DNA of 51,092 nt from an uncultured Parabacteroides sp. (GCA_947036995.1 CAMQTD010000001.1:1-51092), one strand, 5' to 3'. Counted from the first letter of the stretch, positions 6,326-51,092 are shown. The notes: generated by a model not told the origin, from the sequence alone. Made by a program: numbers and translations.

Positions 6326-10366
<4,041 letters not shown>

Positions 10367-25921: not shown

Positions 25922-25993
<72 letters not shown>

Positions 25994-26000
25994 CAATATT

Positions 26001-48208: not shown

Positions 48209-48250
48209 AAAGGCATTTAAACAGACGTTGAATAATGTTTAAATGCCTTT
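48209..48250. terminator. Bidirectional terminator between aroB and the convergent three-gene operon
   Basis: AAAGGCATTTAAACA (48209-48223) / TGTTTAAATGCCTTT (48236-48250), with A/T-rich flanks on both sides. Confidence 0.8.
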
Positions 48251-48328: not shown

Positions 48329-49087
48329 TTAAATACTCTTTAGTTCCATAATATTAAGAAGAGTGAAATGAATATCATCAATAAATTCGTTATTTGATTT
48401 ATGAAAATGACCATAGTACCAGTGTTTTATAGGGTGATTATCGACCTTTAAACGTTCGTATATTTTGTCTATCAATTTACGTTCTTCATCAAGGTCTATG
48501 CGAAGCTCAGAGTCTTCGGACAACCAATTCTCTATGCCTGATTTATCAATAGGGTAACAGAATGATGGACAGGTATGCGTGATTACCGTATCTATATTCA
48601 TTTCTCGGAATCCCTCAAAAACATCATTAATAAAAACAGGAGCTTCATTCTTCCAATAAAGTGGCTGTGTAGTTCTCCCTTTGAGTTCATTAAGGCACAT
48701 GGTCTCTAAACGGTTTTTTCTATCTACAGAAATTGCTCCACCAATGCAAAGCACTGTTTTATGGGCAATATTAATAATAGAGTAATCAGGGATGGTTTTC
48801 ATTCTCTCAAAATCTATCCTACCACCGCTGAAATACGTTGGGTCATCGTGATTACCCCTAACCAAGAGCAGAATATTATTAGTCGTATCAAGTGTTTTAC
48901 TTAGTTTGTTGTATACCTGAAGATAATGAGCTTCCTTTTCAAAGCCTATACCGCAATCTCCTGCAACAATAATTACAGAGTTTTCAATCCTAAGACGCTT
49001 AATTTCAAACATCAATGTTTGAAATTTTCCATGTATATCTCCACATATACAAAGTGTGTCAAAAGCATTATAATCATAGATAGTCAT
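48329..49087 (-). CDS. Calcineurin-like metallophosphoesterase (third gene of the wHTH-NTase-phosphoesterase operon)
   Basis: All metallophosphoesterase motifs occur in order: CGDIHG, AGDCGIG, RGNHDD, ITHTCP, YGHFH. The ATG at 49087 overlaps the upstream gene's TGA by 14 nt; the ORF-track start at 49102 is a TTG. Confidence 0.8.
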   Translation of the reverse strand: MTIYDYNAFDTLCICGDIHGKFQTLMFEIKRLRIENSVIIVAGDCGIGFEKEAHYLQVYNKLSKTLDTTNNILLLVRGNHDDPTYFSGGRIDFERMKTIPDYSIINIAHKTVLCIGGAISVDRKNRLETMCLNELKGRTTQPLYWKNEAPVFINDVFEGFREMNIDTVITHTCPSFCYPIDKSGIENWLSEDSELRIDLDEERKLIDKIYERLKVDNHPIKHWYYGHFHKSNNEFIDDIHFTLLNIMELKSI

Positions 49088-49754
49088 AACGTAAAATATC
49101 AATAATGTAATTCACTCTTTCATCAGATCCATAGGGTAATGCACACTCGATAGCCTCTTCAATATTGGGATTACAAAGTAGAATTTCAAATTGATCTATA
49201 AGGTATTTTTTTAAAGATTCTTCCGTATTTAATATTTGCTCCACTATATTTGTCACGTTATCCAATATATAAATTATATCTTCGAAGTCGTGACTTGTAC
49301 GAAGGTCGTCACCACCTCGTGAAAGCACTGCCTCAAATTTAGTACCCAAATAGTATGGTGTAGGAAATATAAAAATCTCTGTGTCATTTTGCAAAATACA
49401 TATTGTTTTATGTTCTATTCCGCCTTTATACCATTGATTAGTAAATCCAAGAATATTTTCATCAATTGGCATTACATCAACAATTACACGCTTATAAAGC
49501 CACCTGCAAATAGGTGCGCCTTGAGTCATATCATTGCGAAACCCTTTTGCGCGGAGTCGCTCTTCTAACTCATTGTATCGCATACGACTACTAATCTCAA
49601 TAACACAATCGATATCAAGTGTGGCTCTAATGTCTGACGATGCTGGGTCATCAGCATAAAGTTCGGCAACAGAACCACCAACAAAAACTACTTCATTTTT
49701 CATTTCGCCCAATCCATTAACTACAACAGTGAGCATTTCTATATTTTTAGACAT
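49074..49754 (-). CDS. Pol-beta-fold nucleotidyltransferase, AbiEii/DUF1814-like (putative toxin)
   Basis: NTase signature VFVGGSVAELY...ATLDIDCVI, further acidic residues (VDVMPIDE), and a C-terminal KFEAVLSRGG..SHDFEDIIYIL helix like the AbiEii motif III. Length is 226 aa. Confidence 0.6.
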   Translation of the reverse strand: MSKNIEMLTVVVNGLGEMKNEVVFVGGSVAELYADDPASSDIRATLDIDCVIEISSRMRYNELEERLRAKGFRNDMTQGAPICRWLYKRVIVDVMPIDENILGFTNQWYKGGIEHKTICILQNDTEIFIFPTPYYLGTKFEAVLSRGGDDLRTSHDFEDIIYILDNVTNIVEQILNTEESLKKYLIDQFEILLCNPNIEEAIECALPYGSDERVNYIIDILRYDYL

Positions 49755-50259
49755 TGTTCAATCGTTTATTAAGTTCATTTATTGCAATTTCTATCTCTCG
49801 AGCTTTACCAATACGTAGCGTATCAACAATAACTAACAGTTCGTACAATTCAGTATTATTGCCAATAATTTTAGGAACAGTTTTGTAGAGAGGTGATACT
49901 CCATACCCTCTGCGAGTACCAAGATAGTAAGACCATACGTAAATATCGCTACCTTCTGCGATACTTTCCTTGATTGGAGATGCTGAGTGAGCTGTTGCAA
50001 TGCCTCGAACTTTAGCTGAAATTTCAGCTGGGAAAGTATATTTCAAGCCACTAATTAAAAACTCTCTTATAGCGAGCTTATTTATTCGGTTTTTATCTGT
50101 ATTAATAAATCCAGCAATAACACAGCGGTTCATTGCATTAGAAACCTCAGCAGGGCTAATCAATAAAGCCTTTGCCACCTCTATCTGTATCCACTTCTTC
50201 CGTAAAGTTAACAGATATAGAAGAATTAAAATATCTTGCGATTTAATCGATGAACTCAT
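49747..50259 (-). CDS. Winged-helix DNA-binding protein with an uncharacterised C-terminal domain (putative AbiEi-like antitoxin/regulator)
   Basis: MarR-like wHTH ILILLYLLTLRKKWIQIEVAKALLISPAEVSNAMNRCVIAGFI. The stop overlaps the NTase ATG by 8 nt. Confidence 0.55.
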   Translation of the reverse strand: MSSSIKSQDILILLYLLTLRKKWIQIEVAKALLISPAEVSNAMNRCVIAGFINTDKNRINKLAIREFLISGLKYTFPAEISAKVRGIATAHSASPIKESIAEGSDIYVWSYYLGTRRGYGVSPLYKTVPKIIGNNTELYELLVIVDTLRIGKAREIEIAINELNKRLNNV

Positions 50260-50281
50260 TATATTTACAATTTATGAATTG

Positions 50282-50289
50282 CAAATATA
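50282..50289 (-). promoter_or_regulatory. -7 box TATATTTG (minus strand) for the three-gene operon
   Basis: The reverse complement of CAAATATA matches TAnnTTTG, 23 nt upstream of ATG 50259. Confidence 0.5.
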
Positions 50290-50538: not shown

Positions 50539-51092
50539 TTATTTTGACTCAATCAACAAATCATACGCCTTGATTTGTTCTGTACAAATGCGCAGGGTGA
50601 TATCTTTTAATTCTGCTGTTTTCTTTAGCATATACTCATATTCTTCTTTGAGAACCACAAAGTTTGGATTATACCTAGATTCAATGTAGGCTCTAATGAG
50701 TAGATCGTAGCAACGCTCTTCAAACGAATGTGATTCACGGATAGGAGATCTATGTCGGGGAAACAATGTAAATAGCTCTTGTGAATAATCTATTACCTCG
50801 GTTCTCAAATCTTCTAGATCATGAAATTTTGGACGGTAATTATCGAAAACTAGATTTATAGCCTTATAGTATTTTTCACACGCTTGATGTAGCTGAAAAG
50901 CTCCATGTTTATATTTCCCACGTTCATAAGCATTACATCCATCAACTAAAAATTCATTTGCGTCATCAACACACTCATCAAACTCTTCTTGTGCAATATC
51001 CCTTATTCTTTCATGCGAAAGCTGTTGTGGCTTAGATAAGATATGATTACCTGTATCATATAGCATAATACCATCTTTTACAAGATCAGCAT
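50539..51092 (-). CDS. HEPN domain (PF05168-type) at the C-terminus of a probable nucleotidyltransferase-HEPN fusion; 5' end lies outside the window
   Basis: HEPN helices GAFQLHQACEKYYKAINL and LLIRAYIESRYNPNF. The frame stays open upstream of M at 51066 to the window edge (ADLVKDGIMLYD), which resembles the C-terminal end of minimal NTase domains. Confidence 0.65.
   Translation of the reverse strand, partial: ADLVKDGIMLYDTGNHILSKPQQLSHERIRDIAQEEFDECVDDANEFLVDGCNAYERGKYKHGAFQLHQACEKYYKAINLVFDNYRPKFHDLEDLRTEVIDYSQELFTLFPRHRSPIRESHSFEERCYDLLIRAYIESRYNPNFVVLKEEYEYMLKKTAELKDITLRICTEQIKAYDLLIESK

Follow-up and report, generated by a model that had tools for sequence, protein, structure and literature searches.

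Why a gene pair resembling a toxin-antitoxin module should be coupled to a phosphoesterase gene, and what that enzyme acts on, are the questions raised by the locus at 48329-50259 of the window, the whole stretch of 51,092 nucleotides from an uncultured Parabacteroides sp. analysed here. The locus consists of three minus-strand genes: gene 1 (49747-50259, 170 aa), gene 2 (49074-49754, 226 aa) and gene 3 (48329-49087, 252 aa when counted from the ATG at 49087). The TAA of gene 1 and the ATG of gene 2 lie in an 8-nt overlap (ATGTCTAA), and the ATG of gene 3 lies 14 nt within gene 2, the TGA of which occupies 49074-49076. An in-frame TTG at 49102 is a possible alternative start for gene 3, the ATG being the start kept in two related cassettes (L001 and L065). 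A Bacteroides-type -7 promoter box (TATATTTG, minus strand, 50282-50289) is separated by 22 nt from the ATG of gene 1 and is followed by a candidate operator element for gene 1 (GCAATTCATAAATTGTAAAT, minus strand, about 50262-50281). The box and the next approximately 20 nt are kept across four related cassettes (the window, L001, L065 and L002), while cassettes with an upstream phosphoesterase of the PPP type described below carry TATATTTG at the same position, after which comes a perfect palindrome, AATTCGCG-AAT-CGCGAATT. Judged from sequence, the box may act as promoter and the adjoining element as operator, both being candidate roles. Downstream, RNA folding gives a terminator-like hairpin (minus strand, 48209-48250) with a 15-bp stem, a 12-nt loop and a U-rich tail (z = -3.5; 0 of 200 shuffles folded equally well), placed between the convergent gene 3 and aroB and common to both. 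A simple terminator scan missed it, as its loop exceeds the limit of 8 nt in that scan, and a sigma-70 promoter scan (16 hits against 13 expected) is uninformative for Bacteroidales. The coordinates and overlaps agree with the three overlapping reading frames of 170, 226 and 252 aa given in the first-pass annotation, and the promoter box and terminator it had proposed were likewise recovered.

Gene 2 is, as judged from its predicted structure, a MenT/AbiEii-like nucleotidyltransferase (NTase) of the polymerase-beta fold with a MenT-type C-terminal helical domain, and is MenT-like by fold only. The AF2 model (pLDDT 89.8) finds as its top PDB matches MenT1 (8an5, E=5.7e-6), 5uvd, JHP933 (4o8s) and MenT3/TglT (6y5u), at TM scores of 0.43-0.62. 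The key residues are G26-G27-S28, R43, T45, D47, D49, D93, K139 and D156/D159, of which D47, D49 and D93 are invariant across relatives. T45, two residues before the DxD motif (T45-L-D47-I-D49), is a serine or threonine in 80 of 80 relatives; its position matches that of the phospho-acceptors in MenT1, MenT3 and AbiEii, which makes it a candidate phospho-acceptor of gene 2. The motifs reported earlier (GGS...DIDCVI and the C-terminal KFEAVLSRGG..SHDFEDIIYIL) are present, except that the spacer from GGS to the first aspartate is 18 residues and not 20. The accompanying assignment to AbiEii/MenT-type toxins holds for the MenT/JHP933 fold but not for membership of the Pfam family AbiEii/DUF1814 (PF08843), for which the score of gene 2 is 13.3 bits, below the cut-off of 22.5 (E=0.081), over a C-terminal stretch only; the PADLOC AbiEii model gives E=0.0045 and hhalign against eight genuine AbiEii sequences a probability of 4%. 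The match to PADLOC PDC-M21B is by comparison extensive (E=9e-57, profile positions 7-223 of 234).

Gene 1 encodes a winged-helix (wHTH) protein with an unassigned C-terminal domain, and its homologs stand directly upstream of the NTase gene in 80 of 80 loci of the gene 2 family. It matches PADLOC PDC-M21A (E=2.5e-40, 136 bits). The winged helix noted earlier is thus borne out, although the profile matches to MarR/Lrs14-type proteins are weak, whereas a relation to AbiEi (COG5340) is not: neither the Pfam nor the PADLOC AbiEi models match, the hhalign probability is 0.4%, and the protein is shorter than AbiEi and lacks its C-terminal domain signature. By these profile comparisons genes 1 and 2 are not sequence members of AbiEi/AbiEii. 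Gene 1 is presumed to be the antitoxin and autoregulator, and gene 2 the toxin. One same-species strain (L251) carries a nonsense mutation in the NTase gene next to an intact gene 1, which lends indirect support to a toxic role of gene 2, and is the only real variant among three; two apparent disruptions of the NTase or phosphoesterase gene (L253 and L254) proved to be 100-N scaffold gaps and were rejected.

Gene 3 is a calcineurin-like metallophosphoesterase of the phrog_1649 type (E=4.4e-22), translationally coupled to gene 2. It matches Pfam Metallophos (PF00149) at E=1.1e-11, with 46 bits against a cut-off of 21.5, and contains the whole motif set listed in the first-pass annotation (GDIHG, GDCG, GNHD, THT and GHFH); the residues of the five motifs (D17, H19, D44, N79, H80, H171, H227 and H229) are invariant among 23 homologs. 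It does not carry the PPP signature, as GDIHG is followed by GDCGIGF, lacking the DRG of GDxxDRG, and then by GNHD and a GHFH (GHxH) motif V. The match to phrog_246 (NinI-like) reaches only E=7e-4 and is confined to the N-terminus. The solved structures closest to the AF2 model (pLDDT 90.4) are phosphodiesterases and nucleases, namely Dbr1 (E=5e-7), Mre11/SbcD, LpxH and Rv0805, the last of these, a cNMP phosphodiesterase, giving the best TM scores (0.55/0.60), while the first protein phosphatase appears at rank 46. Profile matches to SbcD and calcineurin are equally weak. The SbcD match (E=1.3e-3) covers residues 23-90 at the level of the N-terminal motifs, the 252-aa protein has no nuclease capping domain and no SbcC-like gene is found nearby, so that gene 3 does not qualify as an Mre11/SbcD nuclease. 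These comparisons do not single out a substrate class, the matches to Dbr1, Mre11, LpxH, Rv0805 and calcineurin all being weak. The phosphoesterase of mycobacteriophages (gp48 of A10ZJ24; Bxb1 gp47) was also rejected as a characterised homolog, since it belongs to phrog_221 and gives no hhalign match.

Whether gene 3 belongs to the pair was addressed by a motif scan of all open reading frames in 72 evaluable loci of the gene 2 family. An intact phosphoesterase gene is found inside the cassette in 41 of these, a decayed one in six and none in 25. An earlier survey confined to downstream genes, which had yielded a phosphoesterase in only 7 of 80 relatives, was overturned when the scan uncovered upstream genes. 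Among the 41 intact cases, 29 are upstream genes of the PPP family, ten belong to a type here called mpe2 (five upstream and five downstream) and two are downstream genes of the gene 3 type. The commonest partner is thus a 220-aa enzyme with the PPP signature (GDIHG / GDYIDRG / GNHE), which matches the lambda Ser/Thr phosphatase 1g5b over residues 4-174 (E=8.5e-11) and, below thresholds, the PrpA/PrpB, ApaH and Pnkp models, among them TIGR04075 Pnkp (E=6e-14) and the ApaH/PrpE model NF001204 (E=3.6e-19, below cut-off); its top PDB sequence match is 4j6o, the RNA end-healing phosphatase domain of Pnkp from Clostridium thermocellum (E=8.6e-13). Gene 3 and mpe2 lack BLASTP similarity, and the mpe2 type weakly matches the PADLOC single-gene candidate PDC-S10. 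A view of them as two unrelated families recruited independently was softened, as both match phrog_1649; they are strongly divergent lineages within a single family, and it is the PPP type that truly differs. Three non-orthologous phosphoesterase types are accordingly tied to one pair family.

The linkage is also seen from the side of the phosphoesterase. In 22 of 69 evaluable loci of the gene 3 family an NTase with the RxTxDxD motif ends 3-14 nt from the phosphoesterase start, and two further loci have an IS-interrupted or convergent NTase arrangement; elsewhere in these loci the motif occurs about once per 1400 reading frames. The NTase partners fall into four families, including AbiEi (E=2.8e-54) and AbiEii (E=6.4e-91) pairs. 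Enzymes of the gene 3 type also follow, in two arrangements, Doc-type Fic proteins with HSFVDGNKR, the form that the Fic motif takes in Doc, which we take to mark the kinases acting on EF-Tu. In that case phospho-threonine protein would be the chemistry common to the Doc and NTase partners. About two thirds of the gene 3 family, and all 80 viral copies sampled, have no adjoining NTase. Stand-alone members of the family are common among phage genes (373 relatives in IMG/VR, in addition to Lak megaphages), and many members stand alone with opposite-strand neighbours and no candidate immunity partner (e.g. L263). Pairs of antitoxin and phosphoesterase from which the NTase has been lost were also found (L116; L124/L126/L168; L138). 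The pair on the IMG/VR contig L168 had been considered a phage anti-toxin cassette, but it is the same element as in L124/L126 and not clearly viral.

The cassettes travel whole from one genomic setting to unrelated others. Nucleotide similarity between the window, L001 and L065 ends at the cassette edges, and the three mpe2 homologs sampled, with identity as low as 67%, all lie in cassettes of gene 1, gene 2 and mpe2 with unrelated flanks. Start/stop overlaps are kept, and co-inheritance of the cassettes amid unrelated flanks extends down to 65-69% nucleotide identity. In the assembly collection, 990 blocks contain one mpe2 phosphoesterase from such a cassette, and relatives are located in defence islands, where their neighbours are type I R-M, Eco57I-like, TOTE and STAND genes. 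Gene 3 is therefore very probably a functional partner of the gene 1-gene 2 pair. The earlier proposal of a three-component system beyond the two-gene AbiE is upheld in a more general form than claimed, as a phosphoesterase accompanies most relatives of the pair, and the recurrence of the coupled unit amid unrelated flanks in other genomes speaks against chance. The co-occurrence is nevertheless incomplete, given the 25 loci lacking the enzyme.

The preferred explanation for this association is that the locus is a mobile tripartite cassette of the toxin-antitoxin or abortive-infection type in which the phosphoesterase dephosphorylates and re-arms the toxin, a reading to which we assign a probability of roughly 45%. 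Gene 1 would repress the promoter and serve as antitoxin, and gene 2 would presumably extend tRNA 3' ends with nucleotides and so block translation. Gene 1 would silence gene 2 by causing it to phosphorylate itself on Thr45, which precedes the catalytic D47xD49 by two residues, and gene 3 would hydrolyse the phospho-threonine, so that a stock of silenced toxin could be re-armed rapidly and without new synthesis. The level of active toxin would then be set by antitoxin-driven auto-phosphorylation against phosphoesterase-driven dephosphorylation. The basis of this model is what is observed: the arrangement of the genes, their assignment to folds and families, the conservation of the phospho-acceptor position and the recurrent linkage of phosphoesterase and NTase at the level of the cassette. 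From these we infer that gene 2 is toxic and phosphorylated, that phosphorylated gene 2 is the substrate of gene 3 and that the cassette may defend against phage. Precedents exist in work published from 2020 to 2026 on MenT1, MenT3 and AbiEii, widespread toxins silenced by antitoxin-induced auto-phosphorylation. Antitoxin binding leads to modification of MenT1 (T39-R-D41), MenT3 (S78) and AbiEii (T65), at equivalent positions (PMC11375011). In vitro, the Ser/Thr phosphatase SaSTP removes the phosphate from AbiEii and makes it active again, and PstP dephosphorylates MenT3 non-specifically; of these two toxins, reactivation has been shown for AbiEii. Recent AbiE/MenT papers invoke a "cellular phosphatase", of which gene 3 would be the operon-encoded counterpart if re-arming is true.

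Several results count in favour of re-arming, since phosphoesterases recur both with the pair (41/72) and with four NTase families, the fold of gene 2 is nearest to MenT1/MenT3 with T45 kept as S/T throughout, the commonest partner is of the PPP type and matches lambda Ser/Thr phosphatase, and enzymes of the gene 3 type also follow Doc-type Fic proteins. The removal of an inhibitory phosphate from an auto-phosphorylated toxin, ranked first here, was absent from the first-pass annotation, which had instead raised, among other roles, the possibility of a second, enzymatic antitoxin. As an indispensable antitoxin gene 3 is disfavoured relative to re-arming, because the phosphoesterase is decayed beside intact genes 1 and 2 in five loci (L010, L033, L043, L053 and L060), and it is absent from 25 cassettes. 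Other results count against re-arming: gene 3 itself is not PPP-like and its nearest structures are phosphodiesterases and nucleases, the PPP-type partner finds its top match in Pnkp (4j6o) while ApaH-type hydrolases score similarly, and the 25 cassettes lacking a phosphoesterase work, or at least persist. In addition, an activator co-translated with its toxin needs further control, and a purely activating role leaves the NTase-less pairs unexplained.

The main rival, possible though clearly less probable, is that the phosphoesterase acts on RNA 3' ends and not on the toxin. It may heal 2',3'-cyclic-phosphate or 3'-phosphate ends for extension by the NTase, comparable to the phosphatase domain of Pnkp or the HD domain of the CCA-adding enzyme, or it may trim toxin-added nucleotides and so erase the product, in the manner of DarG in DarTG. 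The closest structures of gene 3 (Dbr1, followed by Mre11/SbcD) act on nucleic-acid phosphodiesters, but likeness of a superfamily fold (TM about 0.5) is a poor guide to substrate; similarly, the PPP-type partner best matches the Pnkp end-healing domain (4j6o; TIGR04075), yet the cassettes contain no other RNA-repair component (kinase or ligase). MenT-type toxins target tRNA 3' ends, and the repair of extended tRNAs is an acknowledged open question (PMC10435456). Both the stand-alone phage copies in IMG/VR and Lak megaphages, which would suit an RNA-repair or counter-defence enzyme, and the toxin-less pairs of antitoxin and phosphoesterase are consistent with such a role. However, a protective eraser should outlast its toxin, which is the opposite of the five losses beside an intact toxin and of the 25 cassettes without the enzyme, and the association with Doc-type kinases would be left unexplained.

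An unlikely alternative is that the substrate is a small nucleotide (a dinucleoside polyphosphate as for ApaH, a cyclic nucleotide or a signal made by the NTase), through whose hydrolysis the phosphoesterase would tune the substrate of the toxin or a signal. The ApaH/PrpE match of the PPP-type partner and the TM scores of Rv0805 would fit, but the ApaH-type matches are far below cut-offs and mainly cover the N-terminal metal motifs, no separate signal-responsive effector is present in the cassette, and the MenT/AbiEii relatives are direct RNA-modifying toxins and not signal synthases. A shade less probable still is a second, independent toxic effector, e.g. a nuclease, restrained by gene 1 or the NTase. 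A mycobacteriophage metallophosphoesterase with phosphodiesterase activity is reported to be toxic and DNA-damaging (PMC12287305), but its Bxb1 homolog gp47 is phrog_221 and not phrog_1649, with no hhalign match. The NTase-less AbiEi-phosphoesterase pairs may be read as two-gene modules and the fold of gene 3 resembles Mre11/SbcD, whereas the PPP-type partner is phosphatase-like and not nuclease-like, and the many stand-alone genes with no candidate immunity partner would be improbable for a constitutive toxin. Fortuitous adjacency or selfish hitch-hiking, with no functional tie to the pair, would accommodate the 25 loci lacking a phosphoesterase and the large share of gene 3 relatives, viral ones included, that are not beside an NTase, but is strongly disfavoured by the association of three non-orthologous phosphoesterase types with one pair family and of a single phosphoesterase family with four NTase families, by the kept codon overlaps and by co-inheritance amid unrelated flanks.

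Such modules hence usually have the phosphoesterase as a third partner that no catalogue lists with them, a component missed by the defence-system catalogues (PADLOC PDC-M21, AbiE) in a layout used by cassettes abundant in gut Bacteroidales and Muribaculaceae. A search of the literature on AbiEii, DUF1814, MenT or PDC-M21 together with phosphoesterases or phosphatases, with most subscription journals outside its reach, found no description of the three-gene layout. That the wHTH/NTase-toxin/phosphoesterase cassettes constitute a distinct type VII-like class of toxin-antitoxin or abortive-infection modules, in which the toxin is stored phosphorylated and inert until armed by a dedicated phosphoesterase, is a tentative proposal with somewhat less than even chances. 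If re-arming is true, gene 3 would represent the first toxin-reactivating third component and would explain what turns MenT/AbiEii toxins back on after their chemical silencing; the phage homologs that stand alone (phrog_1649, lambda-phosphatase-like) might in turn be sensed triggers or counter-defence enzymes, which offers a frame in which the numerous phosphoesterases of these families encoded by phages can be read. The locus and its several hundred relatives offer natural candidates for this, as their phosphoesterase genes, in three interchangeable forms, are bound to toxin genes both physically and in evolution, across at least five NTase families of which canonical AbiE is one, and the question is testable with a 2-kb cassette.

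Among known systems, the closest is PDC-M21, a two-gene candidate (A and B) in PADLOC-DB v2 for which the literature search found no paper. Genes 1 and 2 match its A and B components, are adjacent and co-oriented and have relatives in defence islands; the system has no phosphoesterase component, and while the two-gene core of the locus is thus catalogued, neither gene 3 nor the PPP-type partner matches a PDC-M21 model, gene 3 matching no PADLOC model at all. AbiE (AbiEi-AbiEii of Streptococcus agalactiae and Lactococcus), originally type IV and reclassified as type VII in a 2026 preprint, shares the antitoxin-first order of overlapping genes, a wHTH protein, here the presumed antitoxin and autoregulator with a candidate operator behind the -7 box, and a polymerase-beta-fold NTase in which an S/T precedes DxD by two residues. 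AbiE as described has two genes and depends on the housekeeping phosphatase SaSTP (shown in vitro only), and the window proteins are not its sequence members; canonical AbiE pairs in gut metagenomes nevertheless carry a phosphoesterase of the gene 3 family as an overlapping third gene. MenAT1 and MenAT3 (TglT-TakA) of Mycobacterium tuberculosis provide the structures that match gene 2 best (8an5, 8an4, 6y5u and 6j7p; TM 0.5-0.6, about 15% identity), and their phospho-acceptors T39-R-D41 and S78 correspond to T45-L-D47, while the antitoxins are unrelated. We know of no operon-encoded phosphatase in either system. The lambda Ser/Thr phosphatase, PrpA/PrpB and the Pnkp domain resemble the commonest third gene among relatives of the pair (GDxHG, GDxxDRG, GNHE; 220 aa), unlike gene 3 of the window, which lacks the DRG arginine, belongs to the phrog_1649 branch and has Dbr1/Mre11-like structural neighbours. 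In DarTG and TacT/Pth an eraser strips the damage from the target and is itself the antitoxin; a hydrolase there reverses a toxin-connected covalent modification, as may be the case here, but the present phosphoesterase is dispensable beside an intact toxin gene and more likely acts on the toxin itself. In co-operonic Ser/Thr kinase-phosphatase pairs and partner-switching modules (e.g. Stk1/Stp1, PrkC/PrpC and RsbW/RsbU) the genes for a phosphorylating enzyme and for its matching eraser adjoin and often overlap, which gives a reversible switch, the kinase being Hanks-type or GHKL and the phosphatase PP2C. By analogy, the "kinase" of the present cassette would be the NTase active site of the toxin itself, and its eraser a calcineurin-like enzyme.

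The three-gene cassette is real, and its minus-strand ORFs lie exactly where the first-pass annotation had placed them: gene 1, encoding a winged-helix (wHTH) protein of 170 aa, at 49747-50259; gene 2, encoding a nucleotidyltransferase (NTase) of 226 aa, at 49074-49754; and gene 3, encoding a metallophosphoesterase of 252 aa counted from its ATG, at 48329-49087. The stop of gene 1 and the start of gene 2 share an 8-nt overlap (ATGTCTAA), while the ATG of gene 3 is located 14 nt within gene 2. Ahead of the gene 1 ATG, at a distance of 22 nt, lies a TATATTTG box (50282-50289), which is kept together with about 20 nt after it in four related cassettes. A hairpin 3' of gene 3 (48209-48250; 15 bp, z = -3.5) was missed by a simple terminator scan because of its 12-nt loop. 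All sequence motifs quoted in the first-pass annotation are present, although the spacer between GGS and the Asp is 18 residues and not 20, and its interpretation of a three-component system is supported as well as extended. The window also holds one tRNA-Met (CAT) gene at 25922-25994 on the plus strand, which nothing ties to the cassette.

The winged-helix matches of the gene 1 protein are all weak (MarR_2, E=0.04; Lrs14, E=2e-4; PDB MarR, E=0.025). This protein and the NTase match the two halves of a PADLOC candidate defence pair, PDC-M21A (E=2.5e-40) and PDC-M21B (E=9e-57), respectively. The NTase scores 13.3 bits against Pfam AbiEii, for which the cut-off is 22.5, and profile-profile comparison gives probabilities of 4% for the NTase against eight genuine AbiEii proteins and 0.4% for the gene 1 protein against AbiEi. 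The AlphaFold model of the NTase (pLDDT 89.8) is closest to MenT1, the NTase-like protein 5uvd, JHP933 and MenT3/TglT. Together with the failed AbiEii sequence tests, these fold neighbours identify it, by modelled fold and active-site layout, as a MenT/AbiEii-like NTase and not an AbiEii sequence member. Its invariant or near-invariant residues are G26-G27, R43, T45, D47, D49, D93, K139 and D156/D159. The gene 3 protein is a clear member of Pfam Metallophos (46 bits) with all five motifs invariant, and is matched by none of the PADLOC models. It carries GDCGIGF and GHFH instead of a PPP-like signature, its profile matches are weak in both directions, and the structures closest to its model (pLDDT 90.4) are Dbr1, Mre11/SbcD, LpxH and Rv0805, with protein phosphatases ranking low.

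A genome scan yielded 561 relatives of the NTase, and the best 80 of these 561 loci were studied. A gene 1 homolog lies directly upstream of the NTase in 80/80. Downstream of the NTase, gene 3 homologs were found in two loci and a different metallophosphoesterase of 254 aa (mpe2), overlapping the NTase stop, in five Muribaculaceae/Prevotellaceae loci. This downstream-only view proved too narrow, as a motif scan of all ORFs revealed a phosphoesterase gene upstream of gene 1 in most of the apparent two-gene loci, on the same strand and separated by about 60-100 nt. Among the 80 loci, an intact upstream enzyme of lambda-phosphatase-like (PPP) type (219-220 aa) is found in 29, a PPP pseudogene or remnant in six, an mpe2-type enzyme upstream in five and downstream in five, and a g3-type enzyme, that is, one related to gene 3, downstream in two; 25 have no phosphoesterase and unrelated housekeeping genes upstream, and in eight the flank is too short for evaluation. 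By this tally an intact phosphoesterase is present in 41 of the 72 cassettes that could be evaluated, and the layout in the window, with a translationally coupled phrog_1649-type enzyme downstream, is the rarer one. An intact gene for the presumed toxin can be kept without the phosphoesterase, whose decay beside intact genes 1 and 2 in five loci argues against an essential role as a second antitoxin.

The PPP-type enzyme (for example L006:3763-4425; motifs GDIHG, GDYIDRG and GNHE) has hits to the Pnkp phosphatase domain (4j6o, E=8.6e-13) and to the lambda Ser/Thr phosphatase (1g5b, E=8.5e-11), with sub-threshold matches to ApaH, PrpA, PrpB and PrpE models. The gap between the PPP gene and gene 1 (L004-L079; e.g. 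L006:4426-4486) contains a conserved TATATTTG box followed by a perfect palindrome, AATTCGCG-AAT-CGCGAATT, a candidate operator for the wHTH protein; from the placing of box and palindrome, the upstream PPP gene is outside the gene 1 promoter. At one locus (L037:3776-5005) a single ORF of 409 aa covers both the PPP-type enzyme and the gene 1 homolog, and may be a fused phosphoesterase-wHTH protein or an artefact of assembly or of a frameshift. Residue 28 of the NTase (window about 49671-49673), the last of the GGS at residues 26-28, is Ala in 56, Ser in 19 and Val in five members of its family, GGA thus being the majority form. GGS occurs in every readable member with a g3-type or downstream mpe2-type enzyme (eight aligned plus L110), a pattern which is confounded by phylogeny and absent from the other phosphoesterase-linked NTase families.

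The gene 3 family itself comprises 1925 clustered relatives. Of 69 metagenomic loci that could be evaluated, 22 have an NTase with the motif RxTxDxD ending 3-14 nt from the phosphoesterase start, and two further loci hold an IS-truncated AbiEii or a convergent NTase; among other ORFs of these loci the motif is seen in only about 1 in 1400. Four families account for the NTase partners: true AbiEii preceded by AbiEi (PADLOC E=6.4e-91 and E=2.8e-54; Pfam E=3e-49), two families lacking assignment (c2 and c9), and the gene 2 family (L110 and L260). The NTase-linked phosphoesterases are scattered through a neighbour-joining tree, at five or more separate positions. Doc-type Fic proteins (HSFVDGNKR; DOC_P1 E=3.9e-9), which we take to be kinases of a threonine of EF-Tu, also precede g3-type enzymes. 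RhuM-Doc fusions with this Doc variant of the Fic motif lie directly upstream at L112:2422-4186, L118:1697-3461 and L150:338-3940, the last being a four-gene operon of a Doc-like protein, a short metallophosphoesterase, an unknown protein of 390 aa and an enzyme of g3 type. This unknown protein, at 300-390 aa and without family match, is seen again upstream of g3-type genes, in five loci.

The window, Bacteroides neonati (L001) and a Bacteroidales MAG (L065) resemble each other in nucleotide sequence only as far as the cassette borders, and the same is true of the mpe2-containing cassettes, which share 65-69% nucleotide identity within unrelated flanks. All three mpe2 homologs sampled, down to 67% identity, lie within such cassettes, and one is found in 990 collection blocks (Sangeribacter muris according to one source). 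In a Phocaeicola MAG (L262:1146-4262), homologs of gene 1 (79% identity) and gene 3 (62%) surround a different toxin module, which consists of a 315-aa protein and an NTase of c9 type and stands where gene 2 would be; this looks like a toxin swap within a conserved frame. Relatives of the pair adjoin type I R-M, Eco57I-like, TOTE AEP-helicase and STAND NTPase genes. Many cassettes of the gene 2 family are inserted within or next to type I R-M operons (L011, L035, L047, L063, L036 and others); hsdS then begins directly at the stop of the NTase gene, with hsdM or hsdR as a neighbour. The gene next to the cassette in the window (50539-51092, minus strand) encodes a HEPN protein (Pfam E=1.7e-12), cut by the window end to 175 aa; sibling strains have the whole protein, of 320 aa, to whose C-terminal portion these residues correspond. 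In one such strain, L251, which is of the same species and has an identical AroB, an Abi_2 (PF07751) gene follows. With these neighbours, the cassette is located in a small defence island beside alaS and aroB. In L251 (locus 7270-7949) a 658-nt deletion with CATAG microhomology at its ends has removed nearly all of gene 3, and the NTase carries a nonsense codon (L181*), whereas gene 1 has stayed intact. What looked like disruptions in L253 and L254 proved to be 100-N scaffold gaps.

With MenT3/TglT, MenT1 and S. agalactiae AbiEii, the antitoxin neutralises the toxin by inducing auto-phosphorylation of a Ser or Thr that lies two positions ahead of the first catalytic Asp (S78, T39 and T65, respectively). 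Ser/Thr phosphatases strip this phosphate in vitro (SaSTP from AbiEii, PstP from MenT3), and in AbiEii toxin activity returns on dephosphorylation. The evidence from the locus and its relatives fits this frame: the NTase carries T45-L-D47, Ser or Thr occupies the T45 position in 80/80 relatives, and RxTxDxD is common to all NTases found beside gene 3 homologs. The position of g3-type enzymes after Doc-type Fic proteins fits it as well. Read most simply, and with limited confidence, the cassette-encoded phosphoesterase, most often lambda-phosphatase-like, would be a cognate eraser that re-arms the toxin. That it instead heals or trims RNA 3' ends is a serious rival, since the gene 3 enzyme is not PPP-like and is modelled nearest to Dbr1 and its like, and the top match of the PPP-type partner is an RNA end-healing domain. 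The family is, moreover, often met in phages as a gene standing alone (57 INPHARED records, Lak megaphages among them, and 373 IMG/VR relatives), with no NTase beside it in the best 80 viral loci (IMG/VR L161-L240). Homologs with 31-37% identity are encoded by the Prevotella Lak megaphages and by further phages whose genomes are very large, and an adjacent NTase is always absent from the phage records MK250015-MK250029, LR745206 and LR756502. The same rival draws on AbiEi-type antitoxins paired with a gene 3 family enzyme (L116:69-1425, L124:3303-4754, L126, L168:3290-4750 and L138), the AbiEii toxin being missing or a 77-aa fragment; these loci amount to at least three independent cases. That the enzyme hydrolyses nucleotides, acts as an independent nuclease or is merely adjacent to the pair is less likely. 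Under the eraser reading, the locus is a compact candidate for supplying the step, so far missing, by which auto-phosphorylated NTase toxins are reactivated.

Compared with known systems, the two-gene core belongs to the PADLOC candidate PDC-M21, and may be likened to AbiE/MenAT in its working, even though sequence membership in AbiEi and AbiEii failed. Unlike the cassette in the window, the PDC-M21 and AbiE definitions include no phosphoesterase; a separate single-gene candidate, PDC-S10, is weakly matched by mpe2 only. Full-text literature searches turned up no account of an AbiE/MenT/DUF1814 module whose operon also encodes a phosphoesterase.
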